A stretch of DNA of 64,000 nucleotides from Eledone cirrhosa (GCA_964016885.1 OZ024747.1:19344001-19408000); one strand, 5' to 3'; shown: positions 9,187 through 52,076, counted from the stretch's first letter. A program made the numbers and translations. Notes: generated by a model from the sequence alone, not told the origin.

Positions 9187-9190
9187 TATG

Positions 9191-12591: not shown

Positions 12592-12628
<37 letters not shown>

Positions 12629-12630
<2 letters not shown>

Positions 12631-13044: not shown

Positions 13045-13052
<8 letters not shown>
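12629..13052. mobile_element. Fold-back pLTR-like insertion with a hammerhead in both arms
   Basis: Arms 12715-12876/12892-13052; homologous to 8315-8604; flanked by (CA)n and (TA)n. Confidence 0.8.
12939..13000 (+). ncRNA. Type I hammerhead motif
   Basis: TTTTAT-CTGACGA-GGACGTATTG..CAGTACCTTC-GAAA-TATATA-TA-ATAAAA. Confidence 0.7.
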
Positions 13053-13082
<30 letters not shown>

Positions 13083-13609
13083 TATATATATAATATATAT
13101 ATATATATACACTTGTGTATGTAGGTTATTTTGTGTATAAATTTACACCCATATTCTTTCATATAGGTATATTTATATGCAAATATGTATTTATGTATGC
13201 TTGCATGTATGTATATACGTAGAAATGTGTGTATATGTCTATCTCTCAAGTCCTTATGACTACAGCTATATCTATCTGAGGAGATGTCACTGAAAAAATA
13301 TATATAAAAGGCTTCTTTAACAAGTCAACAACAACAGCTGACTCTTAAAGATGCGAGAAGATGTTGATATCTGACATACGGAAGTCCAATATCGATGTCA
13401 TTGATTCATATATTCTTTAGTTGTAAACAACAACGTCAAGACAAAAAATAAACGCATTTACGAAAAATCTTCAAGTTTTACCAGTGAAATGAAGAATCCT
13501 TAAATTGGAATTCTTAACTAGATTTATTTCTTTTCCATTCTCTTATTTCCTTAACTTTATTATCATCATTGTGGAACAGTTGAATTTTGAGGTAGAAGAC
13601 ATTCACCTC

Positions 13610-13809
13610 NNNNNNNNNNNNNNNNNNNNNNNNNNNNNNNNNNNNNNNNNNNNNNNNNNNNNNNNNNNNNNNNNNNNNNNNNNNNNNNNNNNNNNNNNNN
13701 NNNNNNNNNNNNNNNNNNNNNNNNNNNNNNNNNNNNNNNNNNNNNNNNNNNNNNNNNNNNNNNNNNNNNNNNNNNNNNNNNNNNNNNNNNNNNNNNNNNN
13801 NNNNNNNNN
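13610..13809. other. Assembly gap (200 N)
   Basis: Run of n. Confidence 1.
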
Positions 13810-19800: not shown

Positions 19801-22800
19801 ACCGTCAGAGACTACTACCAAAGACTACTGTCAGAGACTACTACCAAAGACTACTGTCAAAGACTACTACCAAAGACTACCGTCAGAGACTACTACCAAA
19901 GACTACTGTCAGAGACTACTACCAAAGACTACTGTCAAAGACTACTACCAAAGACTACAGTCAGAGACTACTACCAAAGACTACCTGTCAGAGACTACTA
20001 CCAAAGACTACTGTCAAAGACTACTACCAAAGACTACTGTCAGAGACTACTACCAAAGATACTGTCAGAGACTACTACCAAAGACTACTGTCAAGAGACT
20101 ACTACCAAAGACTACTGTCAGAGACTACTACCAAAGACTACTGTCAGAGACTACTACCAAAGACTACTGTCAGAGACTACTACCAAAGACTACTGTCAGA
20201 GACTACTACCAAAGACTACTGTCAAGACTACTACAAAGACTACTGTCAGAAGACTACTACCAAAGACTACTGTCAGAGACTACTACCAAAGACTACTGTC
20301 AGAGACTACTACCAAAGACTACTGTCAGAGACTACTACCAAAGACTACTGTCAGAGACTACTACCAAAGACTACTGTCAGAAGACTACTACCAAAGACTA
20401 CTGTCAAAGACTACTACCAAAGACTACTGTCAGAGACTACTACCAAAGACTACTGTCAGAGACTACTACCAAAGACTACTGTCAGAGACTACTACCAAAG
20501 ACTACTGTCAGAGACTACTACCAAAGACTACTGTCAAAGACTACTACCAAAGACTACTGTCAAGACTACTACCAAAGACTACTGTCAGAGACTACTACCA
20601 AAGACTACTGTCAGAGACTACTACCAAAGACTACTGTCAGAGACTACTACCAAAGACTACTGTCAAAGACTACTACCAAAGACTACTGTCAGAAGACTAC
20701 TACCAAAGACTACTGTCAGAGACTACTACCAAAGACTACCTGTCAGAGACTACTACCAAAGACTACTGTCAGAGACTACTACCAAAGACTACTGTCAAAG
20801 ACTACTACCAAAGACTACTGTCAGAGACTACTACCAAAGACTACTGTCAGAGACTACTACCAAAGACTACTGTCAAGAGACTACTACCAAAGACTACTGT
20901 CAGAGACTACTACCAAAGACTACTGTCAGAGACTACTACCAAAGACTACTGTCAGAGACTACTACCAAAGACTACTGTCAGAGACTACTACCAAAGACTA
21001 CTGTCAGAGACTACTACCAAAGACTACTGTCAGAGACTACTACCAAAGACTACTGTCAGAGACTACTACCAAAGACTACTGTCAGAGACTACTACCAAAG
21101 ACTACTGTCAAAGACTACTACCAAAGACTACTGTCAAAGACTACTACCAAAAGACTACTGTCAGAGACTACTACCAAAGACTACTGTCAGAGACTACTAC
21201 CAAAGACTACTGTCAGAGACTACTACCAAAGACTACTGTCAGAGACTACTACCAAAGACTACTGTCAAAGATACTACCAAAGACTACTGTCAAAGACTAC
21301 TACCAAAGACTACTGTCAGAGACTACTACCAAAGACTACTGTCAGAGACTACTACCAAAGACTACTGTCAGAGACTACTACCAAAGACTACTGTCAGAGA
21401 CTACTACCAAAGACTACTGTCAGAGACTACTACCAAAGACTACTGTCAGAGACTACTACCAAAGACTACTGTCAAAGACTACTACCAAAGACTACTGTCA
21501 AAGACTACTACCAAAGACTACTGTCAGAGACTACTACCCAAAGACTACTGTCAGAGACTACTACCAAAGACTACTGTCAGAGACTACTACCAAAGACTAC
21601 TGTCAAAGACTACTACCAAAGACTACTGTCAGAGACTACTACCAAAGACTACTGTCAGAGACTACTACCAAAGACTACTGTCAGAGACTACTACCAAAGA
21701 CTACTGTCAGAGACTACTACCAAAGACTACTGTCAGAGACTACTACCAAAGACTACTGTCAAAGACTACTACCAAAGACTACTGTCAAAGACTACTACCA
21801 AAGACTACTGTCAAAGACTACTACCAAAGACTACTGTCAGAGACTACTACCAAAGACTACTGTCAGAGACTACTACCAAAGACTACTGTCAGAGACTACT
21901 ACCAAAGACTACTGTCAGAGACTACTACCAAAGACTACTGTCAAAGACTACTACCAAAGACTACTGTCAGAAGACTACTACCAAAGACTACTGTCAGAGA
22001 CTACTACCAAAGACTACTGTCAGAGACTACTACCAAAGACTACTGTCAGAGACTACTACCAAAGACTACTGTCAGAGACTACTACCAAAGACTACTGTCA
22101 AAGACTACTACCAAAGACTACTGTCAAAGACTACTACCAAAGACTACTGTCAAAGACTACTACCAAAGACTACTGTCAGAGACTACTACCAAAGACTACT
22201 GTCAGAGACTACTACCAAAGACTACTGTCAGAGACTACTACCAAAGACTACTGTCAAGAGACTACTACCAAAGACTACTGTCAGAGACTACTACCAAAGA
22301 CTACTGTCAGAGACTACTACCAAAGACTACTGTCAGAGACTACTACCAAAGACTACTGTCAAAGACTACTACCAAAGACTACTGTCAGAAGACTACTACC
22401 AAAGACTACTGTCAGAGACTACTACCAAAGACTACTGTCAAAGACTACTACCAAAGACTACTGTCAAAGACTACTACCAAAGACTACTGTCAGAAGACTA
22501 CTACCAAAGACTACTGTCAAAGACTACTACCAAAGACTACTGTCAGAGACTACTACCAAAGACTACTGTCAGAGACTACTACCAAAGACTACTGTCAAGA
22601 GACTACTACCAAAGACTACTGTCAAAGACTACTACCAAAGACTACTGTCAAAGACTACTACCAAAGACTACTGTCAAAGACTACTACCAAAGACTACTGT
22701 CAAGACTACTACCAAAGACTACTGTCAGAGACTACTACCAAAGACTACTGTCAGAGACTACTACCAAAGACTACTGTCAGAGACTACTACCAAAGACTAC

Positions 22801-25800
22801 TGTCAAAGACTACTACCAAAGACTACTGTCAAAGACTACTACCAAAGACTACTGTCAGAAGACTACTACCAAAGACTACTGTCAGAGACTACTACCAAAG
22901 ACTACTGTCAGAGACTACTACCAAAGACTACTGTCAAAGACTACTACCAAAGACTACTGTCAGAGACTACTACCAAAGACTACTGTCAAAGACTACTACC
23001 AAAGACTACTGTCAGAGACTACTACCAAAGACTAACCTGTCAGAAGACTACTGTCAAAGACTACTGTCAGAGACTACTACCAAAGACTACTGTCAGAGAC
23101 TACTACCAAAGACTACTGTCAGAGACTACTACCAAAGACTACTGTCAGAGACTACTACCAAAGACTACTGTCAGAGACTACTACCAAAGACTACTGTCAG
23201 AGACTACTACCAAAGACTACTGTCAGAGACTACTACCAAAAGACTACTGTCAGAGACTACTACCAAAGACTACTGTCAAAGACTACTACCAAAGACTACT
23301 GTCAAAGACTGCTACCAAAGACTACCGTCAGAGACTACTACCAAAGACTACTGTCAAAGACTACTACCAAAGACTACCGTCAGAGACTACTACCAAAGAC
23401 TACTGTCAGAGACTACTACCAAAGACTACCTTCAGAGACTACTACCAAAGACTACTGTCAAAGACTACTACCAAAGACTACTGTCAAAGACTACTACCAA
23501 AGACTACCGTCAGAGACTACTACCAAAGACTACTGTCAGAGACTACTACCAAAGACTACTGTCAAAGACTACTACCAAAGACTACCGTCAGAGACTACTA
23601 CCAAAGACTACTGTCAGAGACTACTACCAAAGACTACTGTCAAAGACTACTACCAAAGATTACCAGTCAGAGACTACTACCAAAGACTACTGTCAGAGAC
23701 TACTACCAAGACTACTGTCAAAGACTACTACCAAAGACTACTGTTAGAGACTACTACCAAAGACTACCTTCAGAGACTACTACGAAAGACTACTGTCAAA
23801 GACTACTACCAAAGACTACTGTCAGAGACTACTACCAAAGACTACTGTCAGAGACTACTACCAAAGACTACTGTCAGAGACTACTACCAAAGACTACTGT
23901 CAGAAGACTACTACCAAAGACTACTGTCAAAGACTACTACCAAAGACTACCTGTCAGAAGACTACTACCAAAGACTACTGTCAGAGACTACTACCAAAGA
24001 CTACTGTCAAAGACTACTACCAAAGACTACTGTCAGAAGACTACTACCAAAGACTACCGTCAGAGACTACTACCAAAGACTACTGTCAGAGACTACTACC
24101 AAAGACTACTGTCAAAGACTACTACCAAAGACTACTGTCAAAGACTACTACCAAAGACTACTGTCAAAGACTACTACCAAAGACTACCTGTCAGAGACTA
24201 CTACCAAAGACTACTGTCAGAGACTACTACCAAAGACTACCTGTCAGAGACTACTACCAAAGACTACTGTCAAAGACTACTACCAAGACTACTGTCAAAG
24301 ACTACTACCAAAGACTACTGTCAGAGACTACTACCAAAGACTACTGTCAAAGACTACTACCAAAGACTACTGTCAGAGACTACTACCAAAGACTACTGTC
24401 AGAGACTACTACCAAAGACTACTGTCAAAGACTACTACCAAAGACTACTGTCAGAGACTACTACCAAAGACTACTGTCAGAGACTACTACCAAGACTACT
24501 GTCAGAGACTACTACCAAAGACTACTGTCAGAGACTACTACCAAAGACTACTGTCAAAGACTACTACCAAAGACTACTGTCAAAGACTACTACCAAAGAC
24601 TACTGTCAGAGACTACTACCAAAGACTACTGTCAGAGACTACTACCAAAGACTACTGTCAGAGACTACTACCAAAGACTACTGTCAGAGACTACTACCAA
24701 AGACTACTGTCAGAGACTACTACCAAAGACTACTGTCAAAGACTACTACCAAAGACTACTGTCAAAGACTACTACCAAAGACTACTGTCAAAGACTACTA
24801 CCAAAGACTACTGTCAAAGACTACTACCAAAGACTACTGTCAGAGACTACTACCAAAGACTACTGTCAGAGACTACTACCAAAGACTACTGTCAGAGACT
24901 ACTACCAAAGACTACTGTCAAAGACTACTACCAAAGACTACTGTCAAAGACTACTACCAAAGACTACTGTCAGAGACTACTACCAAAGACTACTGTCAGA
25001 GACTACTACCAAAGACTACTGTCAGAGACTACTACCAAAGACTACTGTCAAAGACTACTACCAAAGACTACTGTCAGAGACTACTACCAAAGACTACTGT
25101 CAGAGACTACTACCAAAGACTACTGTCAGAGACTACTACCAAAGATTACTGTCAGAGACTACTACCAAAGACTACTGTCAAAGACTACTACCAAAGACTA
25201 CTGTCAAAGACTGCTACCAAAGACTACCGTCAGAGACTACTACCAAAGACTACTGTCAAAGACTACTACCAAAGACTACCGTCAGAGACTACTACCAAAG
25301 ACTACTGTCAGAGACTACTACCAAAGACTACCTTCAGAGACTACTACCAAAGACTACTGTCAAAGACTACTACCAAAGACTACTGTCAAAGACTACTACC
25401 AAAGACTACCGTCAGAGACTACTACCAAAGACTACTGTCAGAGACTACTACCAAAGACTACTGTCAAAGACTACTACCAAAGACTACCGTCAGAGACTAC
25501 TACCAAAGACTACTGTCAGAGACTACTACCAAAGACTACTGTCAAAGACTACTACCAAAGACTACCATCAGAGACTACTACCAAAGACTACTGTCAGAGA
25601 CTACTACCAAAGACTACTGTCAAAGACTACTACCAAAGACTACTGTTAGAGACTACTACCAAAGACTACCTTCAGAGACTACTACGAAAGACTACTGTCA
25701 AAGACTACTACCAAAGACTACTGTCAGAGACTACTACCAAAGACTACTGTCAGAGACTACTACCAAAGACTACTGTCAGAGACTACTACCAAAGACTACT

Positions 25801-28800
25801 GTCAAAGACTACTACCAAAGACTACTGTCAAAGACTACTACCAAAGACTACCGTCAGAAACTACTACCAAAGACTACTGTCAGAGACTACTACCAAAGAC
25901 TACTGTCAAAGACTACTACCAAAGACTACTGTCAAAGACTACTACCAAAGACTACCGTCAGAGACTACTACCAAAGACTACTGTCAGAGACTACTACCAA
26001 AGACTACTGTCAAAGACTACTACCAAAGACTACTGTCAAAGACTACTACCAAAGACTACTGTCAAAGACTACTACCAAAGACTACCGTCAGAGACTACTA
26101 CCAAAGACTACTGTCAGAGACTACTACCAAAGACTACCTTCAGAGACTACTACCAAAGACTACTGTCAAAGACTACTACCAAAGACTACTGTCAAAGACT
26201 ACTACCAAAGACTACTGTCAGAGACTACTACCAAAGACTACTGTCAAAGACTACTACCAAAGACTACTGTCAGAGACTACTACCAAAGACTACTGTCAGA
26301 GACTACTACCAAAGACTACTGTCAAAGACTACTACCAAAGACTACTGTCAGAGACTACTACCAAAGACTACTGTCAGAGACTACTACCAAAGACTAGTGT
26401 CAGAGACTACTACCAAAGACTACTGTCAGAGACTACTACCAAAGACTACTGTCAAAGACTACTACCAAAGACTACTGTCAAAGACTACTACCAAAGACTA
26501 CTGTCAGAGACTACTACCAAAGACTACTGTCAGAGACTACTACCAAAGACTACTGTCAGAGACTACTACCAAAGACTACTGTCAGAGACTACTACCAAAG
26601 ACTACTGTCAGAGACTACTACCAAAGCCTACTGTCAAAGACTACTACCAAAGACTACTGTCAAAGACTACTACCAAAGACTACTGTCAAAGACTACTACC
26701 AAAGACTACTGTCAAAGACTACTACCAAAGACTACTGTCAGAGACTACTACCAAAGACTACTGTCAGAGACTACTACCAAAGACTACTGTCAGAGTCTAC
26801 TACCAAAGACTACTGTCAAAGACTACTACCAAAGACTACTGTCAAAGACTACTACCAAAGACTACTGTCAGAGACTACTACCAAAGACTACTGTCAGAGA
26901 CTACTACCAAAGACTACTGTCAGAGACTACTACCAAAGACTACTGTCAAAGACTACTACCAAAGACTACTGTCAGAGACTACTACCAAAGACTACTGTCA
27001 GAGACTACTACCAAAGACTACTGTCAGAGACTACTACCAAAGACTACTGTCAGAGACTACTACCAAAGACTACTGTCAGAGACTACTACCAAAGACTACT
27101 GTCAAAGACTACTACCAAAGACTACTGTCAAAGACTACTACCAAAGACTACTGTCAAAGACTACTACCAAAGACTACTGTCAAAGACTACTACCAAAGAC
27201 TACTGTCAGAGACTACTACCAAAGACTACTGTCAGAGACTACTACCAAAGACTACTGTCAGAGACTACTACCAAAGACTACTGTCAAAGACTACTACCAA
27301 AGACTACTGTCAAAGACTACTACCAAAGACTACTGTCAGAGACTACTACCAAAGACTACTGTCAGAGACTACTACCAAAGACTACTGTCAGAGACTACTA
27401 CCAAAGACTACTGTCAGAGACTACTGCCAAAGACTACTGTCAGAGACTACTACCAAAGACTACTGTCAGAGACTACTACCAAAGACTACTGTCAAAGACT
27501 ACTACCAAAGACTACTGTCAGAGACTACTACCAAAGACTACTGTCAGAGACTACTACCAAAGACTACTGTCAGAGACTACTACCAAAGACTACTGTCAAA
27601 GACTACTACCAAAGACTACTGTCAAAGACTACTACCAAAGACTACTCTCAGAGACTACTACCAAAGACTACTGTCAGAGACTACTACCAAAGACTACTGT
27701 CAAAGACTACTACCAAAGACTACTGTCAAAGACTACTACCAAAGACTACTGTCAGAGACTACTACCAAAGACTACTGTCAAAGACTACTACCAAAGACTA
27801 CTGTCAAAGACTACTACCAAAGACTACTGTCAAAGACTACTACCAAAGACTACTGTCAAAGACTACTACCAAAGACTACTGTCAGAGACTACTACCAAAG
27901 ACTACTGTCAGAGACTACTACCAAAGACTACTGTCAGAGACTACTACCAAAGACTACTGTCAAAGACTACTACCAAAGACTACTGTCAAAGACTACTACC
28001 AAAGACTACTGTCAGAGACTACTACCAAAGACTACTGTCAGAGACTACTACCAAAGACTACTGTCAGAGACTACTACCAAAGACTACTGTCAAAGACTAC
28101 TACCAAAGACTACTGTCAGAGACTACTACCACAGACTACTGTCAAAGACTACTACCAAAGACTACTGTCAGAGACTACTACCAAAGACTACCTTCAGAGA
28201 CTACTGTCAAAGACTACTGTCAGAGACTACTACCAAAGACTACTGTCAGAGACTACTACCAAAGACTACTGTCAGAGACTACTACCAAAGACTACTGTCA
28301 GAGACTACTACCAAAGACTACTGTCAGAGACTACTACCAAAGACTACTGTCAGAGACTACTACCAAAGACTACTGTCAGAGACTACTACCAAAGACTACT
28401 GTCAGAGACTACTACCAAAGACTACTGTCAAAGACTACTACCAAAGACTACTGTCAAAGACTGCTACCAAAGACTACCGTCAGAGACTACTACCAAAGAC
28501 TACTGTCAAAGACTACTACCAAAGACTACCGTCAGAGACTACTACCAAAGACTACTGTCAGAGACTACTACCAAAGACTACCTTCAGAGACTATTACCAA
28601 AGACTACTGTCAAAGACTACTACCAAAGACTACTGTCAAAGACTACTACCAAAGACTACCGTCAGAGACTACTACCAAAGACTACTGTCAGAGACTACTA
28701 CCAAAGACTACTGTCAAAGACTACTACCAAAGACTACCGTCAGAGACTACTACCAAAGACTACTGTCAGAGACTACTACCAAAGACTACTGTCAAAGACT

Positions 28801-31800
28801 ACTACCAAAGACTACCATCAGAGACTACTACCAAAGACTACTGTCAGAGACTACTACCAAAGACTACTGTCAAAGACTACTACCAAAGACTACTGTTAGA
28901 GACTACTACCAAAGACTACCTTCAGAGACTACTACGAAAGACTACTGTCAAAGACTACTACCAAAGACTACTGTCAGAGACTACTACCAAAGACTACTGT
29001 CAGAGACTACTACCAAAGACTACTGTCAGAGACTACTACCAAAGACTACTGTCAAAGACTACTACCAAAGACTACTGTCAAAGACTACTACCAAAGACTA
29101 CCGTCAGAAACTACTACCAAAGACTACTGTCAGAGACTACTACCAAAGACTACTGTCAAAGACTACTACCAAAGACTACTGTCAAAGACTACTACCAAAG
29201 ACTACCGTCAGAGACTACTACCAAAGACTACTGTCAGAGACTACTACCAAAGACTACTGTCAAAGACTACTACCAAAGACTACTGTCAAAGACTACTACC
29301 AAAGACTACTGTCAAAGACTACTACCAAAGACTACCGTCAGAGACTACTACCAAAGACTACTGTCAGAGACTACTACCAAAGACTACCTTCAGAGACTAC
29401 TACCAAAGACTACTGTCAAAGACTACTACCAAAGACTACTGTCAAAGACTACTACCAAAGACTACTGTCAGAGACTACTACCAAAGACTACTGTCAAAGA
29501 CTACTACCAAAGACTACTGTCAGAGACTACTACCAAAGACTACTGTCAGAGACTACTACCAAAGACTACTGTCAAAGACTACTACCAAAGACTACTGTCA
29601 GAGACTACTACCAAAGACTACTGTCAGAGACTACTACCAAAGACTACTGTCAAAGACTACTACCAAAGACTACTGTCAAAGACTACTACCAAAGACTACT
29701 GTCAAAGACTACTACCAAAGACTACCGTCAGAGACTACTACCAAAGACTACTGTCAGAGACTACTACCAAAGACTACCTTCAGAGACTACTACCAAAGAC
29801 TACTGTCAAAGACTACTACCAAAGACTACTGTCAAAGACTACTACCAAAGACTACTGTCAGAGACTACTACCAAAGACTACTGTCAAAGACTACTACCAA
29901 AGACTACTGTCAGAGACTACTACCAAAGACTACTGTCAGAGACTACTACCAAAGACTACTGTCAAAGACTACTACCAAAGACTACTGTCAGAGACTACTA
30001 CCAAAGACTACTGTCAGAGACTACTACCAAAGACTACTGTCAGAGACTACTACCAAAGACTACTGTCAAAGACTACTACCAAAGACTACTGTCAGAGACT
30101 ACTACCAAAGACTACTGTCAGAGACTACTACCAAAGACTACTGTCAGAGACTACTACCAAAGACTACTGTCAGAGACTACTACCAAAGACTACCTTCAGA
30201 GACTACTACCAAAGACTACTGTCAAAGACTACTACCAAAGACTACTGTCAAAGACTACTACCAAAGACTACTGTCAGAGGCTACTACCAAAGACTACTGT
30301 CAGAGACTACTACCAAAGACTACTGTCAAAGACTACTACCAAAGACTACTGTCAGAGACTACTACCAAAGACTACTGTCAAAGACTACTACCAAAGACTA
30401 CTGTCAAAGACTACTACCAAAGACTACTGTCAGAGACTACTACCAAAGACTACTGTCAGAGACTACTACCAAAGACTACTGTCAGAGACTACTACCAAAG
30501 ACTACTGTCAAAGACTACTACCAAAGACTACTGTCAAAGACTACTACCAAAGACTACTGTCAAAGACTACTACCAAAGACTACTGTCAAAGACTACTACC
30601 AAAGACTACTGTCAGAGACTACTACCAAAGACTACTGTCAGAGACTACTACCAAAGACTACTGTCAGAGACTACTACCAAAGACTACTGTCAAAGACTAC
30701 TACCAAAGACTACTGTCAAAGACTACTACCAAAGACTACTGTCAGAGACTACTACCAAAGACTACTGTCAGAGACTACTACCAAAGACTACTGTCAGAGA
30801 CTACTACCAAAGACTACTGTCAGAGACTACTACCAAAGACTACTGTCAGAGACTACTACCACAGACTACTGTCAAAGACTACTACCAAAGACTACTGTCA
30901 GAGACTACTACCAAAGACTACCTTCAGAGACTACTGTCAAAGACTACTGTCAGAGACTACTACCAAAGACTACTGTCAGAGACTACTACCAAAGACTACT
31001 GTCAGAGACTACTACCAAAGACTACTGTCAGAGACTACTACCAAAGACTACTGTCAGAGACTACTACCAAAGACTACTGTCAGAGACTACTACCAAAGAC
31101 TACTGTCAGAGACTACTACCAAAGACTACTGTCAGAGACTACTACCAAAGACTACTGTCAAAGACTACTACCAAAGACTACTGTCAAAGACTGCTACCAA
31201 AGACTACCGTCAGAGACTACTACCAAAGACTACTGTCAAAGACTACTACCAAAGACTACCGTCAGAGACTACTACCAAAGACTACTGTCAGAGACTACTA
31301 CCAAAGACTACCTTCAGAGACTACTACCAAAGACTACTGTCAAAGACTACTACCAAAGACTACTGTCAAAGACTACTACCAAAGACTACCGTCAGAGACT
31401 ACTACCAAAGACTACTGTCAGAGACTACTACCAAAGACTACTGTCAAAGACTACTACCAAAGACTACCGTCAGAGACTACTACCAAAGACTACTGTCAGA
31501 GACTACTACCAAAGACTACTGTCAAAGACTACTACCAAAGACTACCATCAGAGACTACTACCAAAGACTACTGTCAGAGACTACTACCAAAGACTACTGT
31601 CAAAGACTACTACCAAAGACTACTGTTAGAGACTACTACCAAAGACTACCTTCAGAGACTACTACGAAAGACTACTGTCAAAGACTACTACCAAAGACTA
31701 CTGTCAGAGACTACTACCAAAGACTACTGTCAGAGACTACTACCAAAGACTACTGTCAGAGACTACTACCAAAGACTACTGTCAAAGACTACTACCAAAG

Positions 31801-33617
31801 ACTACTGTCAAAGACTACTACCAAAGACTACCGTCAGAAACTACTACCAAAGACTACTGTCAGAGACTACTACCAAAGACTACTGTCAAAGACTACTACC
31901 AAAGACTACTGTCAAAGACTACTACCAAAGACTACCGTCAGAGACTACTACCAAAGACTACTGTCAGAGACTACTACCAAAGACTACTGTCAAAGACTAC
32001 TACCAAAGACTACTGTCAAAGACTACTACCAAAGACTACTGTCAAAGACTACTACCAAAGACTACCGTCAGAGACTACTACCAAAGACTACTGTCAGAGA
32101 CTACTACCAAAGACTACCTTCAGAGACTACTACCAAAGACTACTGTCAAAGACTACTACCAAAGACTACTGTCAAAGACTACTACCAAAGACTACTGTCA
32201 GAGACTACTACCAAAGACTACTGTCAAAGACTACTACCAAAGACTACTGTCAGAGACTACTACCAAAGACTACTGTCAGAGACTACTACCAAAGACTACT
32301 GTCAAAGACTACTACCAAAGACTACTGTCAGAGACTACTACCAAAGACTACTGTCAGAGACTACTACCAAAGACTACTGTCAAAGACTACTACCAAAGAC
32401 TACTGTCAAAGACTACTACCAAAGACTACTGTCAAAGACTACTACCAAAGACTACCGTCAGAGACTACTACCAAAGACTACTGTCAGAGACTACTACCAA
32501 AGACTACCTTCAGAGACTACTACCAAAGACTACTGTCAAAGACTACTACCAAAGACTACTGTCAAAGACTACTACCAAAGACTACTGTCAGAGACTACTA
32601 CCAAAGACTACTGTCAAAGACTACTACCAAAGACTACTGTCAGAGACTACTACCAAAGACTACTGTCAGAGACTACTACCAAAGACTACTGTCAAAGACT
32701 ACTACCAAAGACTACTGTCAGAGACTACTACCAAAGACTACTGTCAGAGACTACTACCAAAGACTACTGTCAGAGACTACTACCAAAGACTACTGTCAAA
32801 GACTACTACCAAAGACTACTGTCAGAGACTACTACCAAAGACTACTGTCAGAGACTACTACCAAAGACTACTGTCAGAGACTACTACCAAAGACTACTGT
32901 CAGAGACTACTACCAAAGACTACCTTCAGAGACTACTACCAAAGACTACTGTCAAAGACTACTACCAAAGACTACTGTCAAAGACTACTACCAAAGACTA
33001 CTGTCAGAGGCTACTACCAAAGACTACTGTCAGAGACTACTACCAAAGACTACTGTCAAAGACTACTACCAAAGACTACTGTCAGAGACTACTACCAAAG
33101 ACTACTGTCAAAGACTACTACCAAAGACTACTGTCAGAGACTACTACCAAAGACTACTGTCAGAGACTACTACCAAAGACTACTGTCAGAGACTACTACC
33201 AAAGACTACTGTCAGAGACTACTACCAAAGACTACTGTTAAAGACTACTACCAAAGACTACTCTCAGAGACTACTACCAAAGACTACTGTCAGAGACTAC
33301 TACTAAAGACTACTGTCAGAGACTACTACCAAAGACTACTGTCAGAGACTACTACCAAAGACTACTGTCAGAGACTACTACCAAAGACTACTGTCAGAGA
33401 CTACTACCAAAGACTACTGTCAGAGACTACTACCAAAGACTTCTGTCAGAGACTACTACCAAAGACTACTGTCAGAGACTACTACCAAAGACTACTGTCA
33501 GAGACTATTACCAAAGACTACTGTGAAAGACTACTAACAAAGACTACTGTCAGAGACTACTACCAAAGGCTACTGTCAGAGACTACTACCAAAGACTACT
33601 GTCAGAGACTACTACCA
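13810..33617. repeat. 26-bp satellite (GACTACTACCAAA GACTACTGTCARA), roughly 760 units, with higher-order repeats
   Basis: Two related 13-bp halves; the 26-aa periodic translation spans 3 units; variant units recur at 2730-bp spacing. Confidence 0.97.
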
Positions 33618-33623
33618 GGGACT

Positions 33624-36541
33624 ACGAACACACAGACACACAAAATAGAGTAGATAATAACAATGAGCCAGAGGAAAGAGACAGGAGTAATAATGAGAGA
33701 CATAGAAACAACCATGAGGCTGTTGGTGGAAATAGAAATAGAAACAACACAACTAACAATAACAATAGCACTAGTACACATAAAGCAGCAGCCTGGAACT
33801 CTACTTTTTATAATCCCTCCGATAAGTCGTTTGACCTGCGACGAGTCCACGCCACGACTTTAGCTTTTAACAAACGCACGCAATCACCGTCGCAGGTCGA
33901 TGAAGGAACAGAAGGACAATTTAGTATAGCTAAATCTAAACTTAGAAATATTATAGAACAGTGTAGCAAGAAGCATAATAGAACGGAGGCCTAACAACTG
34001 GGAGAAAAATCTGCAAATGGCTTGCATAAGCTCATGCAGCGCTCGCGTAATGGAGAGATAGCATGCTTTCCAACAGACAAGTCTGGCAGAATGTAGGTTG
34101 ACAGTCTGCCAAACTACATCCAGGCAATACAACCCCACATCACTAACACAAGAGAAGTAACACCATAAGAGCATGAGGATAGAGAAATAGACCTCAATGC
34201 CCATATGGCGATGTGGACAAATATAATGCAGCCCAACAAAAGGACTGCCAACAACTTCCAGGCCTGGAACAACGACGTGCCAGCGTTGTATGGGCTTCGA
34301 AAAGACCATAAAACGGTCAGTGACCCTGTCACGGGACCACCAGCACGGCCAGTCTGTGGGGCTAACATTGCTAGTAACTACAGACTGTCCTACTTCCTCT
34401 CCCTGATCATACGCCCTATCATTGAAATGTCCCCAGATGTATGTGACAGCACGGAGGACCTCCTCAGCAGAATCGGCGAGAGTAACCGATCTAGGGATCT
34501 AACAAACTGCATAATAGGTAGTATGGATGTTGTGTCCCTGTATCCATCTATTGACGTGGATTTTGCTGTAGAGAAATGCGTAGAAATGATCAGTGAGAGC
34601 AATGTTGAGTGCCGTGGGATTGACACCGGTGAGCTGGGACTCCTACTTAAACTTACCTATAGTAATAATTATCTAGATACATATGACCTTAGCAACCTGT
34701 GCCCTACAAGACCAGCAAGAAGCAGACCACCTACCATTACCTCAATGGCCAAGAAAACCCACACAGATAGATGGAACGGGTGGACCAGAGCCATACGGAT
34801 CCCCGAAAACCACGATTAACTAAAGAAAATGCTGGGGGCCAGCATAAAATTAACCCTTAAGGAACATATGTTCAAATTTAATGGAAAAACATATGCCCAA
34901 GAGGAGGGAGCAGCCATTGGTGTTAGCATTGCAGGCGACATAGCTAACTTATTCATGGTATGGTGGGACAGTAGACTTAAACTTAAACTTAAAGAACAAT
35001 TAGAAGACCCCTTAACCCTGATAATGTACTCCCGCTACGTTGATAATATAAACATCCTAGTTAAAACACCCCCACTAGAGAACAGTCAGGAATTAGAGAA
35101 AACACAATGGAAAACATCCAGCAAATAGCTAACTCCATCCGCCAGAGTTTTAGAGTTACTATAGGCTACCCAAGCAAACACCTCAACCATCGATTACCTG
35201 TACGAGACACATAGCTCTGGTTAGATACCATTAATAACAAAAAAACAAATCCTCCATTTCCATTATGCCAAACCCATGACTTCCAAATATCTGATCCACC
35301 GAAACTCAGCTGTTTCGGACCATACCAAAATCAACATACTGATTGCGGATTTGGTACGGGTGATGAGAAACGTGTCCCGCATGTGCAACCCCGAAGAATT
35401 AGAGAGACATATACAACACTTCATCCACTGTATGCAGTTCTCTGGTTACAATCAGAGAGATAAAATCAGAGTGTATAGAGGAGCCAGAACCAAATGGGAA
35501 AAAATGGTAAATAATGACACAAATGGGACCTGCCCCTTGTATAGGAGCAAATTTTGGAACAGAATAGAAAGAACTAGGAATAAGGCTAATAGAATAAACT
35601 CATGGTATGATAGCAACAAATACCAGAGTGTAATGTTCATCGATACAACCCCTAGAGGTGAATTAGCTTACAAATTTAGAAGGGCCCTAGATAAACATAA
35701 ACTCAATATTAAGATAGTAGAAAGACCAGGTACCTCCATAGAAACACTTATTAGCAAGACATACCCTTTTGAAAGACCCCCCTGTATAGATAAGAAATGT
35801 ATAACCTGTAAATTAAGCCTCCATATTAACTGAAAAACTAGAAATGTAGTATATAGCATATGATGTACTGAAGGACAATGTAGAGACAAAAATAGAGTGT
35901 ACATAGGTGAGACAGCTCGTAGTGTAGGGGAACGGATAAACGAACACTGGCGAGACCTTCAAGATAGTACAGAATCATCTGTACTCTACCAACATGCTAA
36001 AATAGAACATAAGGGGAAATTAGAGAACATAGAAATAAAAATAGAATCTACACACAGAAAAGACACAATGTTTAGACAAATCACAGAGGCAATAAACATA
36101 AAAGAATTACAACCAAAATTAAATAGAAAACATGAGTGGAACAGCAACATCACAACTTACAATAAAGGACAAAATGAAAACACACACGCATATAGAACAA
36201 ACAACCAACCTGTAACATGTAAATAAACAAATAAATAAACGAATATAAACACACACAGACACCCGGATGTGGCGTATGCGCAGACTGAGCACACAACACA
36301 CACACAGAAACAAGATGGCGTAGGACAGAACAAAGGAGAGGCACAAAAACAAAGAAAAGAATCCCCAGTCATTGAAGAGGTCACAGAATGTGTGACGAAA
36401 GAACTTTGACAATATATAAACAACCATCTGGTTGTGGAACCAACCAACCAACCGGAAATTTATAAATTTTATTATAATAAATTGAAGTGAAAGCAACTGG
36501 TGCGTGTGTTTCTTATTGGCAACATGACCCTCCCAAAGTAT
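33624..36541 (+). mobile_element. Decayed, 5'-truncated Penelope-like retroelement (RT + GIY-YIG pseudogene with 3' pLTR)
   Basis: Colinear with 43400-46441; ORF fragments 34205-34819, 34829-35128, 35276-35833 and 35897-36226 separated by stops/frameshifts; YVDD mutated to YVDN; hammerhead core mutated (TTGAAGA at 36372). Confidence 0.95.
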
Positions 36542-37084
36542 CTGCAAGTTATGCAATTTAGAGATATACTGCATTTTAACGTCAGTAAACAAACTTTTGA
36601 ACAGCAAAATTGAACGTTCTCTATACTGTAACCATCGTTTGAAAACGACTTTTTCTTTTTTTAAATGCATATAATGTTACCTTTTCACACCAACGTTTGC
36701 AAATTTCTGTCTTATATGTTTATACACTAGATATGGCTTTCTATAATAATAGTACTAAACACTGTTTTTATGGACCCCTTTAGAAATAACCTGCTACTAT
36801 AATAGCCCTAATAACTTGTCTGTGACACTGTACCGCTTTGACCCCTCTAACTAAATTTTGTCCGAACAACACCACTAGAAGAATCTACTTCCCAGCCAAC
36901 CTTAACACGCCTCATTAAGCTAACTGCTGCCAAAACATTCTCTCTCCACAATCTCTACTAGTCTGACAGTCTTAAACCCTAAGACTCCCTCCACCTTACT
37001 CACTTCCCTCTTCCCCTTCTCTTCCTACCTCCCTCTTTATCTTTTATCTAGTGTATAAAATATTTTCATATCATTCTAATACAA

Positions 37085-37201
37085 AGGTCTGATGACATGG
37101 TGTGTTGGCTTACAGTGTACTTTCGGTTTTTGATAATATTTGTGTATTATTTAAATAGCGAGGTATAGGTAACTCATACACTATAGAAACAATTGTTACC
37201 T
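37085..37201 (+). ncRNA. Type I hammerhead motif with extended stem II, at the end of a decayed PLE-like 3' region (~36600-37240)
   Basis: AGGT-CTGATGA-CATGGTGTG...CATACACTATA-GAAA-CAATTG-TT-ACCT. Confidence 0.6.
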
Positions 37202-37343
37202 AATAAATTCTATATACCCGCATTTCAATTTCGTAAATTTTTTCTCCATATATATATATATATATATATATAATTTTTTCTCCATATATATATATATATA
37301 TATATATAATTTTTTCTCCATATATATATATATATATATATAT

Positions 37344-42534: not shown

Positions 42535-42636
<102 letters not shown>

Positions 42637-42660
42637 AGAATATATATATATATATATATA

Positions 42661-45600
42661 GAGTATACCAATAGATATCCCGACAAAATTGACGGTATCA
42701 ACATGGCCGACACCTCATTATCTGAAGAGTTCAACAATGAAAATACCAACATTTATGGAAACACGGAAATAGATAATAATGAAATGTCTGTGTTACGTCT
42801 GCCACCCAAATTTGCGACATTCAAGAAGGTAAATATGATTAGTTGTCTGTCAGAAATAGAAAAATCATTTACGAAACTACGCTGGAGCATCAAAAACAAA
42901 AACAAAAGCAACAATATACGCACACACATATACAACACACATCCCAACAACAACAGACACACAGACACAAACAACAATAACAACAACAATAGCAACATAC
43001 CCAGATACAACACCAACAATAGCAACATACCCAGATACAACAGACACGCAGACACAAACAACAATAACAACACACACGGAGACAACAATAACAACAACAC
43101 ACACATCGACAACAACAGCAACATACCCAGATACAACAACAACAGACACGCAAACACAAACAACAATAACAACACACACAACAACGATAACACACACGGA
43201 GACAACAACACACATCAACAACAACACACATCAACAACAACAACACACACACATTCAATGCCTCTCACCACCACTACAATCTTAACAAACACACAGACAC
43301 AGAAAACAAGTAATGACAGTAGCACAGAAATCAGAGAAATAAGAGAAAGTAATAGGATTAAAAGGAGAAGGGAGACTAAGGACAAAGAGAATAACCAAGA
43401 CGAACACACAGACACACAAAATAGGGTAGATAACAACATTGAGCCAGTGGAAAGAGACAGGAGTAATTATGAGAGACATAGAAACAACCATGAAGCTGAG
43501 GCTGCTGCTGTTGGTGGAAATAGAAACAACACAACTAACAATAGCACTAGTACACATAAAGCAGCAGCCTGGAACTCTCCGTTTTATAACCCCTCCGATA
43601 AATCATTCGACCTACGACGAGTCCACGCCACGACTTTGCCATTTAACAAACGCACGCAGTTGCCGTCGCAGGTCGATGAACAAACAGAAGCACAATTTAG
43701 TATAGCTAAATCCGAACTTAGAAATATTATAGAACAGTATAGCAAGAAGCATAATAGAATAGAGGCCCAGCAACTGGGAGAAGAATCTGCAAATGGCTTG
43801 CGTAAGCTCATGCAGCGCTCACGTAATGGAGAGATAGCATGCTTTCCAACAGACAAGTCTGGCAGAATGTCGGTTGACAGCCTGCCAAACTACATCCAGG
43901 CAATGCAACCCCACATCACTAACACAAGAGAGGTAACACCACAGGAGCATGAGGATAGAGAAAAAACCCTCAATGCCCATATGGTGATGTGGACAAATAT
44001 AATGCAGCCCAACAAAAGGACTGCCAACAACTTCCAGGCCTGGAACAATGACGTGCCGGCGTTGTATGGGCTTCGAAAAGACCATAAAACGGGCTGGGAC
44101 CCTGTCGCGGGACCACCAACACGGCCAGTCTGTGGGGCTAACATTGCTAGTAACTACAGACTGTCCTACTTCCTCTCCCTGATCATACACCCCATCATTG
44201 AGATGTCCCCAGATGTGTGTGACAGCACGGAGGACCTCCTCAGCAGAATCGGCGCGGGTAACCGATCTGGGGACCTAACAAACTGCATAATAGGCAGTAT
44301 GGATGTTGTGTCCCTGTATCCATCTATTGACGTGGATTTTGCTGTGGAGAAATGCGTCGAAATGATCAGCGAGAGCAAGGTTGAGTTCCGTGGGATTGAT
44401 ACCAGTGAGCTGGGACTTCTACTTAAGCTTACCCATAGTAATAGTTACCTAGACACTTATGACCTTAGCAACCTGTGCCCTACAAGACCAGCAAGAGGCA
44501 GACCACCTACCATTACCTCAATGGCCAAGAAAACCCACACAGATAGATGGAACGGGTGGACCAGAGCCATACGGACACCCGAAAACCACGATGAACTGAA
44601 GAAAATGATTGCACATGCGGTAGGGGCCAGCATAAAATTAACCCTTAAGGAACATATGTTCAAATTTAATGGTAAAACATATGCCCAAGAGGAAGGAGCA
44701 GCCATTGGTGTTAGCATTGCAGGCGACATAGCTAACTTGTTCATGGTATGGTGGGACAGTAGACTTAAACAAAAACTTAATGAACAATTAGAAGACAGCT
44801 TAACCCTGATAATGTACTCCCGCTACGTAGATGATATAAACATCGTAGTTAAGACACCCCCACTAAAGAACAGTCAGGAACCAGAGAAAAACACAATGGA
44901 AAGCATCCAGCAAATAGCAAACTCCATCCACCAGAGCATTAGAGTTACTATAGACTACCCAAGTAGACACCCCAACCATCGATTACCTGTACTAGACACA
45001 GAGTTCTGGTTAGATACTATTAACAACCAAAAACAAATCCTCCATTCCCATTATGCCAAACCCATGACTTCCAAACATCTGATCCACCGAAACTCGGCCA
45101 TTTCGGACCATACCAAAATCAACATACTGATTGCGGATTTGGTACGGGTGATGAGAAATGTGTCCCGCATGTGCAACCCCGAAGAACTAGAGAGACACAT
45201 ACAACACTTCATCCACCGTATGCAGTTCTCTGGCTACAATCAGAGAGATAGAATCAGAGTGTATAAAGGAGCCAGAACCAAATGGGAAAAAATGGTAAAT
45301 AATGACATAAATGGGACCTGCCCCTTGTATAGGAGCAAATTTTGGAATAGAATAGAAAGAACTAAGAACAAGGCCAATAGAATAAACTCATGGTATGATA
45401 GCAATAAATACCAGAGTGTAATGTTCATCAATACAACCCCTAGAGGCGAACTAGCCTACAAATTTAGAAGGGCCCTAAAGAAACATAATCTCAATATTAA
45501 GATAGTAGAAAGACCTGGTACCTCCGTAAAAACACTTATTAGCAAGACATACCCGTTCCAAAGACCCTCATGTATAGATAAGAAATGTATAACCTGTAAA

Positions 45601-45954
45601 ATAAGCCCCCATATTAACTGTAAAACTAGAAATGTAGTATATAGCATAAGATGTACTGAAGGACAATGTAGAAACAAAAATATAGTGTACATAGGTGAGA
45701 CAGCTCGTAGTATAGGGGAACGAATAAATGAACACTGGCGAGACCTCCAAGATAGTAAAGAATCATCTGTGCTCTACCAACATGCTAAGATAGAACACAG
45801 GGGTAAATTAGAGAGCATAGAAATAAAAATAGAATCCACACACAAGAAAGACGCAATGTTTAGGCAAATTACAGAGGCAGTAAGCATAAAAGAATTAAAA
45901 CCAAAATTAAATAGAAAATATGAGTGGAACAGCAACATCACAACTTACAATTAA
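42661..45954 (+). CDS. PLE polyprotein: Asn/His-rich linker, reverse transcriptase, Cys linker, GIY-YIG endonuclease (first in-element Met at 42703)
   Basis: TDKSG, LYGLRKDHK, RPVC, MDVVSLYPSID, QEEGAAIG..IANLFM, RYVDDI, LPVLD; CIDKKCITC; NVVYSIRC..C..YIGETARSIGERINEH; ITEA..I..LKPKLN. The track ORF start (42409) reads through flank and (TA)n and is not genuine. Confidence 0.93.
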   Translation, partial: EYTNRYPDKIDGINMADTSLSEEFNNENTNIYGNTEIDNNEMSVLRLPPKFATFKKVNMISCLSEIEKSFTKLRWSIKNKNKSNNIRTHIYNTHPNNNRHTDTNNNNNNNSNIPRYNTNNSNIPRYNRHADTNNNNNTHGDNNNNNTHIDNNSNIPRYNNNRHANTNNNNNTHNNDNTHGDNNTHQQQHTSTTTTHTHSMPLTTTTILTNTQTQKTSNDSSTEIREIRESNRIKRRRETKDKENNQDEHTDTQNRVDNNIEPVERDRSNYERHRNNHEAEAAAVGGNRNNTTNNSTSTHKAAAWNSPFYNPSDKSFDLRRVHATTLPFNKRTQLPSQVDEQTEAQFSIAKSELRNIIEQYSKKHNRIEAQQLGEESANGLRKLMQRSRNGEIACFPTDKSGRMSVDSLPNYIQAMQPHITNTREVTPQEHEDREKTLNAHMVMWTNIMQPNKRTANNFQAWNNDVPALYGLRKDHKTGWDPVAGPPTRPVCGANIASNYRLSYFLSLIIHPIIEMSPDVCDSTEDLLSRIGAGNRSGDLTNCIIGSMDVVSLYPSIDVDFAVEKCVEMISESKVEFRGIDTSELGLLLKLTHSNSYLDTYDLSNLCPTRPARGRPPTITSMAKKTHTDRWNGWTRAIRTPENHDELKKMIAHAVGASIKLTLKEHMFKFNGKTYAQEEGAAIGVSIAGDIANLFMVWWDSRLKQKLNEQLEDSLTLIMYSRYVDDINIVVKTPPLKNSQEPEKNTMESIQQIANSIHQSIRVTIDYPSRHPNHRLPVLDTEFWLDTINNQKQILHSHYAKPMTSKHLIHRNSAISDHTKINILIADLVRVMRNVSRMCNPEELERHIQHFIHRMQFSGYNQRDRIRVYKGARTKWEKMVNNDINGTCPLYRSKFWNRIERTKNKANRINSWYDSNKYQSVMFINTTPRGELAYKFRRALKKHNLNIKIVERPGTSVKTLISKTYPFQRPSCIDKKCITCKISPHINCKTRNVVYSIRCTEGQCRNKNIVYIGETARSIGERINEHWRDLQDSKESSVLYQHAKIEHRGKLESIEIKIESTHKKDAMFRQITEAVSIKELKPKLNRKYEWNSNITTYN

Positions 45955-46143
45955 GGACAAAATGAAAACACACATAGAACAAACAACTTACAATTGAAAA
46001 CACACACAAAATGAAAACACACACAAGACAAAATGAAAACACACACACACATAGAACAAACAACCAACCAACAATAAATAAATAAATAAACAAACAAATA
46101 TAAATAGAAAAATAGAAAAATGAACACAAACACACACAGACAC

Positions 46144-46199
46144 CCGGATGTGGCGCATGCGCAAACTGAGCATGCAACCCACACACAAACAAAATGGCG
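46144..46199 (+). promoter_or_regulatory. Putative pLTR promoter cluster: ETS-, NRF1- and YY1-like motifs
   Basis: CCGGATGT (46144), GCGCATGCGC (46153), CAAAATGGCG (46190); equivalents retained at 36263-36320. Confidence 0.5.
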
Positions 46200-46245
46200 T
46201 AGGATAGAAGAAAGGAAAGGCACAGAAACGAAGAAAGAAATCCCC

Positions 46246-46290
46246 AGTCACTGAAGAGGTCACAGAGTGTGTGACGAAAGAACTATGACT
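46246..46290 (+). ncRNA. Minimal type I hammerhead ribozyme of the PLE pLTR
   Basis: AGTCA-CTGAAGA-G-GTCAC-AGAGTGT-GTGAC-GAAA-GAAC-TA-TGACT. Confidence 0.8.
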
Positions 46291-46441
46291 ATATATATAT
46301 AAACAACTATCTGGTTGTGGAACCAACCAACCAACCAGAAATTTATAAATTTGTAAATTTATAAATATATATTAAATTAAATTGAAGTGAAAGCAACTGG
46401 TGCGTGTGTTTCTTATTGGCAACATGACCCTCCCAAAGTAT

Positions 46442-46495
<54 letters not shown>

Positions 46496-46496
46496 A

Positions 46497-46556
<60 letters not shown>

Positions 46557-46559
<3 letters not shown>

Positions 46560-47252
46560 TTTGATAGCGCTAGTCTGTGATTTAAATTCAGGAATTTTAT
46601 ATTCTTTGAATAAAAAGAACCTTCTGACGAGAATCTCTCTTTGCAACGAAGGCCGTATGGTCTCCGTTTTATTTTTGGGATTCGAAACCGATCGGTAAAG
46701 GTAACTATAGTAGGTAAAGCCAATTTTTTAAAATTTATTTTGAAACTTTTTCATTATTTACTAAACCTTGTTTATATTTGTTCTGGCTCGTTAATTTATT
46801 AACCCGCCATTGAACCACATTGGCACTTGGTTGGACAATACGTGCGTACCTTGGCGCCTTGTGCGTGAAGGGACGTATTTCATATTACTACTACCTCCAC
46901 TAACGTTGAGAACAAACCGGGTCATTCCGACTGCTGCTGGCAACAGCGGTGGCTAGTTTGACCTACCTCCTTTTGCCTCTATCTTTGCTACGGCCCTTGA
47001 TAAACCTGTTCTACATCATCCACTCTCATCCCAGGAACAGTTTTTGATAGCGCTAGTCTGTGATTTAAATTCAGGAATTTTATATTCTTTGAATGAAAAG
47101 AACCTTCTGACGAGAATCTCTCTTTGCAACGAAGGCCGTATGGTCTCCGTTTTATTTCTGGGATACGAAACCGATCGGTAAAGGTAACTATAGTAGGTAA
47201 AGTCAATTTTTTAAAATTTATTTTGAAACTTTTTCATTATTTACTAAACCTT

Positions 47253-47258
<6 letters not shown>
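46557..47258 (+). mobile_element. Partial tandem (about 1.45 copies) of a 483-bp hammerhead-containing unit; retrozyme/mini-PLE-like
   Basis: ~220-bp direct repeats at 46557-46777 and 47040-47260; (TA)n on both sides; no RT ORF. Confidence 0.8.
46619..46702 (+). ncRNA. Type I hammerhead (second copy at 47102-47185)
   Basis: ACCTT-CTGACGA-GAATCTC...GGGATTC-GAAA-CCGATCGG-TA-AAGGT. Confidence 0.8.
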
Positions 47259-47289
<31 letters not shown>

Positions 47290-47294
<5 letters not shown>

Positions 47295-47854
47295 CAGGAA
47301 AGAAGAGTGACACGGTTTGCTATACCAAAAATGTTTTTAATCTCATTGCTGACAATTGTTTCTCTGAAATGGTAGGTCTAGAGATCGCTATCCGCCTGTT
47401 TTCGCGTCATTCGATCACCAATACATAGTTGTAACCAGTCAATTCATCAGAGATTGCGAGAATGAAGGGAATACACAGGCATGGCTTCTATATATAGTAA
47501 TGGAATTCAATCAGAACAATAACAACAATACTAGCAATGCTAGCAATAAATTATTTGAAATAATCACATCAATCTAAGTAAGAAATATAGATCTCTAGAC
47601 CTACCAGTTCAGAGAAACAAATGTCAGCAATGAGATTAAAAACCTTTTTTGTATAGCAAACCGTGTCACTCTTCTTTCCTGATTTATTATTACTCCAAGT
47701 GTTAACAACATAGAAATCACCGTGTACTCGCAGCATCACTATGGAAACGCCTTGTTGAGTCAAACTTAGCCAAGCGTTGATATCATCCACTACTCGGAGT
47801 ACCCTAACTGGACTACACCTAAGTGGACTACCTATAACAATAATCTGTTATCCC

Positions 47855-47908: not shown

Positions 47909-47996
47909 AAATGTGTGAAATCCTTGGTACAGTTAGGTATATTTGAAAAAGGAAAAGAATGACTTCACTTGTAGTTCTAAACAATTTGATTTAATT

Positions 47997-48375
47997 TTAT
48001 AATTGTTTCTACATTTGGCACAAGACCAGCAATTACTCAGTAGGTTACTGGTACTTTATTTTATCGACCCCGTAAGGATGAAAGGCAAAGTTAACCTCGG
48101 CGGGATTTGAACTCAGATCATAAAGGGCCGTAACTCGTTGCTGCAAAGCATGGCATCCGACTCTCTACCGATACTGCCAATCCACCATTCGGTGAATTGG
48201 CAGTATTGGTAGAGGGTCGGACATGCTTTCCAGCATAGTTACGTCCCCCTACGATCTGAGTTCAAATCCAGCCGAGGTTAACTTTGCCTTTCATCCTTAC
48301 GGGGTCGATAAAATAAAGTACCAGTAACCTACTGGGTAATTGCTGGCCTTGTGCCAAATGTAGAAACAATTATAA
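47997..48375. mobile_element. Head-to-head inverted pair of SINEs (47997-48186 minus, 48191-48375 plus)
   Basis: Two near full-length SINEs separated by ATTC. Confidence 0.85.
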
Positions 48376-48685
48376 CATTATGAGTTGGTAGATCTAGTAA
48401 GTTCTTTGTTAACTTCGGTGGGAAGATTTTAAAAGATTCCTGGTTAATTTTCCTGGAGAACTCTCTCGCATTCGTCGGTGGCGTATCAATATGTATGAGC
48501 CATTGCCTTTCCCTTGAACGTCATCGGTGGTGTGGAGAGGCGAGGCGTGGGTAACTGTTGGTCTTCGACAAACAACCTTGCCCGGACTTGTGCTTCGGAA
48601 GGAAACGTTCTAGGTGCAAATCCCATGGTCATTGGTGGCCGAAGGGGGTCTTTACCCTATATATAAATATATATATAAATATATA

Positions 48686-48885
48686 ATAACTAGAAATTGA
48701 TTAACATATATATAAACATGAATAATCAAAGGAGATAATTTTTACAAGTGTGTAACCACACATAGCTAGGTAGGTAACTAAATAAAGTTGACCAGAACTT
48801 CAAAAATATGTGTGGTTACACACTTGTAAAAATTATCTCCTGTGATTATTCATGTTTATATATATGTTAATCAATTTCTAGTTAT
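48686..48885. repeat. 79-bp-arm inverted repeat within a (TA)n-flanked insertion
   Basis: Arms 48686-48764/48807-48885. Confidence 0.8.
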
Positions 48886-51892: not shown

Positions 51893-52076
51893 ATGTATGT
51901 ATGTATGTATGTATGTATGTATGTATGTATGTATGTATGTATGTATGTATGTATGTATGTATGTATGTATGTATGTATGTATGCATGTATGTATGTATGC
52001 ATGTATGCATGTATGTATGTATGTATGCATGTATGTATGTATGTATGTATGTTTGTATGGATGTATGTATGTATGT
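51893..52076. repeat. (TATG)n microsatellite
   Basis: Direct reading. Confidence 0.95.

Follow-up and report, generated by a model that had tools for sequence, protein, structure and literature searches.

The window, a stretch of 64,000 nucleotides of Eledone cirrhosa DNA, is animal DNA with many (TA)n tracts, foldback repeats and LINE pieces, and its SINE-like repeats presumably resemble those of octopus. Positions are counted from its first letter, and all sequence features described here lie on the plus strand. A satellite array occupies 13810-33625, a span of at least 19.8 kb, with a period of 26, approximately 760 units and 95% matches. The 26-bp unit is made of two 13-bp halves that have 10-11 of 13 bases in common; a half A alternates with B or C, and the variants E and F are rarer. 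The plus strand of the array is A/C-rich (A 7874, C 5372, T 3776, G 2789), and G-runs are absent from the opposite strand, with a single CCC across the 19.8 kb. The true left end of the array is hidden by a scaffold gap of 200 N (13610-13809), to the left of which the scaffold continues.

The array is long, homogeneous and organized in higher-order repeats, with interior variation of 0.31% beyond the five common half-units. The clearest higher-order duplication (28595-33136) comprises two identical blocks of 1812 bp, 28595-30406 and 31325-33136, at an offset of 2730 (105 units), and a block related to this 2730-bp duplication was found 3250 bp further left. The duplication may reflect either recent unequal exchange or assembly expansion, and the length of the array is therefore uncertain. 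Open frames across the array were considered as genes and rejected; the unit carries no stop on the plus strand. A satellite-derived peptide matched none of the proteins of 55-175 and 176-2000 residues, which is a weak test, and an exact 31-base satellite pattern had no match in metagenome, viral and prokaryote contigs; these are non-animal collections and are silent on how widely the satellite is spread.

To the right of the array lie two copies of a PLE, the second of which (copy 2, 42661-46445) has an open frame to 45954 encoding an RT, a Cys linker and a GIY-YIG endonuclease. The RT and endonuclease motifs can be read in its protein (P0001), which has 218 relatives, and are conserved in the alignment. 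The Cys linker takes the form C-x4-C-x2-C (residues 958-966 of row 1), and its cysteines are invariant in 7/7 rows. The two internal cysteines of the endonuclease motif (CCHH) are invariant in the same seven rows, while the histidines are found in P0001 and the full-length rows. In Pfam, P0001 had no match and RVT_1 was found in 2 of the 7 aligned members; solved structures returned two weak RT matches only. Among named proteins, the nearest to the element comes from Octopus vulgaris (66% identity). An earlier reading of this DNA, made from the sequence only, had identified the element as a PLE, and the RT, Cys linker and GIY-YIG motifs bear this out. That reading had also described copy 2 as intact. 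The frame is indeed open, but approximately 170 N-terminal residues seen in relatives are missing, and copy 2 is therefore also 5'-truncated. Its N-terminal region contains an in-frame insert of ~220 residues rich in Asn, His and Thr (42890-43560), which is much shorter in relatives. The insert is repeat-prone.

Neptune-type PLEs, in the available part of PMC8557442, have a C-terminal GIY-YIG domain, a CX2-5CxxC linker before the endonuclease and a CCHH endonuclease motif that is absent in the Hydra clade; a microsatellite insertion bias and a hammerhead ribozyme in the terminal repeat are also counted among the features of the type. Classified by these features rather than by a tree, the element resembles Neptune and neither Hydra nor Naiad. 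The RT, the C-x4-C-x2-C linker and the GIY-YIG domain with its internal Cys/His motif are shared with the elements of that source, as are the position of copy 2 in (TA)n, strong 5' truncation and, perhaps, a hammerhead-like fold in the 3' repeat. It differs from them, as far as the same text describes them, in the long N-terminal Asn-rich insert and in that copy 1 has no microsatellite at either end. The family as a whole is high-copy, microsatellite-seeking and heavily 5'-truncated: the (TA)n tracts on either side of copy 2 share a 9-base interruption, 112 contigs of sequencing run X1 continue as AACAA-(TA)n past the shared 3' end at 36541, and summed depth in X1 climbs 46-fold from the 5' part of the element to its 3' end.

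The hammerhead-like folds are minimal and predicted, at 36368-36410 in the 3' repeat of copy 1 and at 46246-46290 in that of copy 2. In copy 1 the stems are predicted and the core was recognized by eye against the consensus; its first base is unlike that of copy 2. The copy 2 fold was not significant when compared with shuffles (z -0.86), and an Rfam search over 33000-64000 gave 41 matches, none of which reached the gathering score, all of them being microsatellite or foldback noise and none a hammerhead. PLE hammerheads are reportedly the subject of one published study.

Copy 1 (33624-36541) is a dead element, 5'-truncated within the Asn-rich insert and 92% identical to 43400-45987 of copy 2. 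Across 2909 aligned bases the two copies differ by 211 substitutions (7.3% apart, 92.7% alike) and two 1-base indels. Copy 1 contains 7 stops in 840 codons, and its private decay is estimated at ~4.9% from non-synonymous changes and stops, or at 8.1% from stops alone. Of the 37 element rows listed for run X1, the 22 at 96% or more, where X1 disagrees with copy 1 almost completely, were used and 15 were dropped; copy 2 shares the X1 letter at all 22 of these sites, and the changes are therefore private to copy 1. At its 3' end copy 1 lacks the AACAA-(TA)n ending of the family and overlaps by one base with a downstream repeat, the flank (36541-37230) being the interior of another high-copy repeat. 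According to the portion of PMC11167929 that is accessible, a 3' tail is commonly optional in PLEs. Four listed X1 contigs carry 23 other letters upstream of 36541 in the flank repeat. These are missing here, and at the 5' junction also; the absence of the usual upstream neighbour of the flank repeat from the 5' junction indicates that DNA was lost or exchanged at the locus.

The array ends in CTACCAGGGACT, followed by AC and then by GAACACAC, and so runs directly into copy 1. The AC (33624-33625) is a 2-base overlap that can be assigned to either the satellite or the element, and this 5' junction has no (TA)n, no spacer and no target-site duplication. The direct fusion of satellite and PLE, as first proposed from the sequence, is thus as described. 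A satellite-element frame that continues across the junction (33527-33994) was considered as a gene and rejected; it is terminated by one of the stops in the dead element.

The satellite units next to the element are decayed. The last 130 bp of the array (33496-33625) contain 6 substitutions (4.6%, 95% interval 1.7-9.8%), compared with 4 in the 390 bp before the edge (1.0%) and 23 in 7399 bp of array interior (0.31%; Fisher p 8e-6). The edge value matches the private decay of copy 1, although this match in age rests on 6 substitutions and the estimate from stops alone is higher. The crowding of unique substitutions towards the junction provides internal support that it is real, and the junction is probably both old and real.

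The same observations bear on the possibility that the end of a satellite contig was misjoined to a repeat copy during assembly. Both sides of the junction are repeats, and the 1812-bp identical duplication is a potential assembly expansion. The junction stretch was partly present in 9 of the 12 sequencing runs listed, the best having 5 of 19 sampled words and none half or more, and no RNA run was listed as carrying it. No contig or read among those listed for four sequencing runs bridges 33624, an outcome that neither supports nor refutes the junction. Set against a misjoin are the unique substitutions and the distribution of small indel errors: off-register steps number 87 of 843 at 13.8-25 kb, towards the gap, and 0 of 647 at 25-33.6 kb, the 8.6 kb beside the junction. 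This is the pattern that would be expected if long reads were anchored on the element side. Furthermore, X1 supports none of the 9 private letters of copy 1 that were listed, nor 3 of the flank, and some of these lie far from the junction; X1 is therefore probably another individual or species. An assembly artefact is accordingly judged very improbable.

A 17-mer of the GAGACTA type at 43372-43388 of copy 2 had been reported to match the satellite at 13/17, which is as written, and the match extends to 26 bases at 43373-43398, where it is 19/26 to the A+C unit and 18/26 to the A+B unit. The latter is the type present at the junction, and the segment lies just upstream of the point at which copy 1 starts. 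At 17 bases the match is weak by itself: with all rotations of the satellite unit allowed, its score is reached at some place in the element by 242 of 300 shuffled units and within the 48 junction bases by 63 of 3000. Matches of 14/17 occur 5 times elsewhere in the non-satellite window. The 26-base version fared better. It is the sole best ungapped 26-mer match on both strands of the non-satellite window, and none of 3000 composition-keeping local shuffles reached it, while 17 of 300 did so anywhere in the element; positions equal to the 26-base match number 23 of 3732, and within the Asn-rich linker 23 of 740. The test window was picked after the match was seen.

Other scoring schemes gave less support. 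At 20 bases, 89 of 3000 shuffles reached the score, and at 20 and 30 bases the match is not the best in the element. Gapped scoring was weaker (2-69 of 1500 shuffles; 14-111 of 1244 positions equal) and found higher scores elsewhere in the element. It was weakest when only the junction unit type was used, 4-9% of element positions matching equally, which leaves room for chance. The shuffle p consequently ranges from <0.001 to 0.05, depending on the method. The truncated element could, on this basis, have been joined to the array edge by plain end-joining through the 2-base overlap, the likeness being a coincidence between two A/C-rich sequences. The gapped p values of up to 0.05, the results at 17 and 20 bases and the post hoc choice of window favour this explanation, but the local result at 26 bases and the fact that the only 19/26 match of the non-satellite window falls at the junction do not, and it is considered unlikely. 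The likeness is probably beyond chance, though modest and found after the fact.

A likeness beyond chance could mean that the satellite was born from the PLE, either by local expansion of the linker or by repeated copying of a short template, as the sequence-only reading had suggested; this could have happened here or in an ancestral family. The best ungapped 26-mer match of the element does lie at the junction, in an insert that is prone to repeats. Self-priming and template jumps have been proposed for PLE Asn-rich inserts in the available text of PMC3846280, and there are precedents for tandem arrays derived from PLE terminal repeats or from other pieces of transposons: non-LTR retrozymes from PLE terminal repeats form tandem arrays (10.64898/2026.07.22.740005), and arrays from transposon sub-sequences are on record (10.64898/2026.09.17.752431). 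As in those cases, insofar as the accessible text describes them, a tandem array here lies beside, and faintly resembles, part of a retroelement. The units there, however, are long and clearly homologous to the element, whereas the present unit is 26 bp, 69-73% alike, and resembles a coding insert with no ribozyme.

Several features of the satellite itself argue against such descent. A seed taken from copy 1's own linker should be approximately 93% like copy 2, and the identity between satellite and element of 69-73%, which is below the 92.7% between the element copies, is too low. The 7-8 mismatches in 26 are not expected from the 7.3% divergence between copies (binomial p 0.002 and 0.0004), and with an assumed linker divergence of 12% p is 0.03 and 0.009. 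The halves of the element segment (43373-43398) agree at 7/13, fewer than the satellite's 10-11/13, and the unit therefore looks like a doubled 13-mer; the best single match of the 13-mer to the element is only 10/13, and 10/13 matches are common, there being 36 in the element. Repeated template copying should produce units that are in register with the break, but aligning the likeness to the junction needs a 4-base gap. Expansion within a live copy would be prevented by the period of 13 or 26, which breaks the reading frame. Fast concerted evolution from the linker of an older family is possible.

The distribution of the satellite points in the same direction. It is abundant in X1 (depth at 33595: 49,286 summed, 3-12 for the single pieces listed), where the 9 listed private letters of copy 1 are unsupported, and this suggests that the satellite is independent of this locus, bearing in mind that contigs show presence and not absence. 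It is also present in runs X5, X6 and X8, at depths of 5-30. Element pieces in X5 are 92-99% like those of the window, and the proportions of satellite, element 5' part and flank in X6 are near those in X1; the signal in X5, X6 and X8 may be trace DNA of one animal kind, and these runs are not counted as other species. Judged from the letters of the unit and the insert, the satellite was probably not born from this linker, and the suggested seeding is not supported by the counts of mismatches, halves and register; birth from the linker, whether here or in an ancestor, is judged very improbable.

Two further explanations concern the array rather than the element. If an array had been inserted by homeologous recombination into an older and longer PLE copy, the 5' part of the element might lie within the gap. 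This would account for the likeness at the break, the left end of the array is unseen, and a precedent exists in mobile satellite insertions of 0.5 to >21 kb reported in an alga (PMC9977147, in its available part). The array edge shows as much decay as the element, so that such an insertion could hardly be much younger than the element itself. PLE sequence to the left of the array had been named as a sign of an origin within the element: no match was found in 1-13609, although the 200-N gap leaves the true left end of the array out of sight. As 5' truncation needs no special cause in this family, and no PLE lies in the sequence left of the gap, insertion of the array is thought quite unlikely.

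Alternatively, the array might be a chromosome-end repeat and the junction a healed break, comparable to truncated Athena elements capped by telomeric repeats. The polarity fits, in that the strand richer in G and T, read 5' to 3', points to the contig end and the decayed units are proximal, and the accessible part of PMC3846280 describes PLE 5' ends that are capped by telomeric repeats. The repeat array at a truncated 5' end and its polarity are common to the Athena elements of that text and to this locus, but here the element carries an endonuclease, G-runs are missing from the unit and the array is followed by more scaffold. The array contains one CCC in total, the scaffold goes on to the left of the gap, and kilobase duplications indicate recombination and not telomerase. 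In addition, a single telomere test in octopods reported the common hexamer, as far as the available parts of the sources go (PMC6160780, PMC13218726, PMC5646656), although by the same accounts it rested on weak or poor metaphases; that hexamer is absent from the 64-kb window. A chromosome-end origin is regarded as highly improbable and, of the explanations considered, the hardest to sustain.

The preferred explanation for these observations is that an existing satellite was joined to a truncated PLE by annealing guided by homeology, probably at insertion, with loss of the intervening DNA; a probability of roughly 0.55 is assigned to this reading. The junction, its 2-base overlap, the adjacent likeness of 18-19/26, the lack of a target-site duplication and the matching decay are directly seen. 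A join at the array edge had been offered earlier as the simpler alternative to seeding, and it fits best, with the likeness explaining its position: the best ungapped 26-mer of the element lies at the junction and accounts for where the join fell. The likeness is thus best read as what set the location of the join, and not as a sign of descent. It does lie 4 bases out of register, and the direct overlap is of only 2 bases, both of which count against this explanation.

The sequence of events under the annealing explanation would begin with a satellite array that existed before the junction. The element would have primed in the downstream repeat, and reverse transcription would have halted within the Asn-rich insert. 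The end of the unfinished copy may then have annealed to the satellite at the stretch of greatest likeness, the DNA between being lost. Subsequently, unequal exchange would have kept the interior of the array homogenised while the units beside the element decayed together with it. The join could equally belong to a later repair event, with an indistinguishable outcome. For Pen2 of Adineta vaga, a PLE 5' junction that arose through microhomology, with no duplication, is described (PMC3846280, in the part available). The truncated 5' end, the short overlap and the lack of duplication are common to the two cases; as far as that text goes, the present locus differs in that its partner is a long satellite, in that the 3' flank is another repeat and in that a longer imperfect match lies beside the join.

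A truncated retroelement joined to the edge of a satellite by short homology is known biology, of which this locus would be one more case. The gradient of decay at the edge dates the junction, and indicates that homogenisation reaches to within approximately 130-500 bp of it. A more far-reaching version traces an abundant octopus satellite back to 26 bp of the Asn-rich coding insert, first multiplied by a telomerase-related RT that copied a short template repeatedly, with the junction as a relic. This is very doubtful, but, if true, the satellite would be a record left in nature of telomerase-like activity by telomerase's sister group. Searches of the literature, by topic and largely among freely available papers, listed no 26-bp satellite of this kind and no satellite from a PLE coding insert. 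They likewise found no account of octopod centromeres, and the main text of a centromere preprint makes no mention of octopus. By its length, homogeneity and higher-order organization, the 26-bp satellite may be put forward as a candidate centromeric repeat for octopods.

The open-frame copy of the Penelope-like element (PLE copy 2) carries, in its N-terminal region, an in-frame insert of approximately 220 residues that is rich in Asn, His and Thr (42890-43560). When the related Octopus vulgaris protein P0002 was aligned with it, the same site was found to hold a shorter stretch rich in Asn, Ser and Gly. Asn-rich inserts have also been described in PLEs of a rotifer, at positions other than that seen here, and were reported there to be unseen in other retrotransposons (PMC3846280).

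Copy 2 is flanked by (TA)n tracts (42539-42660 and 46446-46556) that contain an identical 9-base interruption. This shared interruption looks like a long target-site duplication within a microsatellite. A 221-bp direct duplication (46557-46777 and 47040-47260; 98% identical) lies immediately 3' of the copy. The 3' repeats of both PLE copies contain a minimal hammerhead-like fold, located at 46246-46290 in copy 2 and at 36368-36410 in the dead, 5'-truncated copy 1, in which the first core base is altered relative to copy 2. Neither fold was matched in Rfam.

The window contains several other mobile elements. Foldback (MITE-like) elements with 94-96% arm complementarity are located at 12710-13057, 47289-47687, 47992-48380 and 48681-48890, and further members of the family represented by 47992-48380 were found at 55570, 61062 and 61644. 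Two pieces of non-LTR retrotransposon, both on the minus strand (52297-54449 and 61798-63411), encode a reverse transcriptase (Pfam RVT_1), after which a Cys/His motif and the motif of a restriction-like endonuclease were identified by eye; the segments 52068-52912 and 61798-62639 are 95.6% identical.

Tandem repeats include a 5.3-kb (TA)n array of 2665 copies with scattered CG variants (1836-7166) and a 17-bp minisatellite of 21 copies with 95% matches (11744-12098). The 26-bp-unit satellite fused to PLE copy 1 (13810-33625) contains kilobase higher-order repeats. Sequencing runs X1 and X6 contain gapped forms of the satellite, with gaps of 3 bases and of 1 base (window positions 33574 and 33595); the 3-base-gap variant was not found in the window's own array. 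The satellite is present at high depth in run X1, and is a candidate octopod centromeric or heterochromatic repeat.
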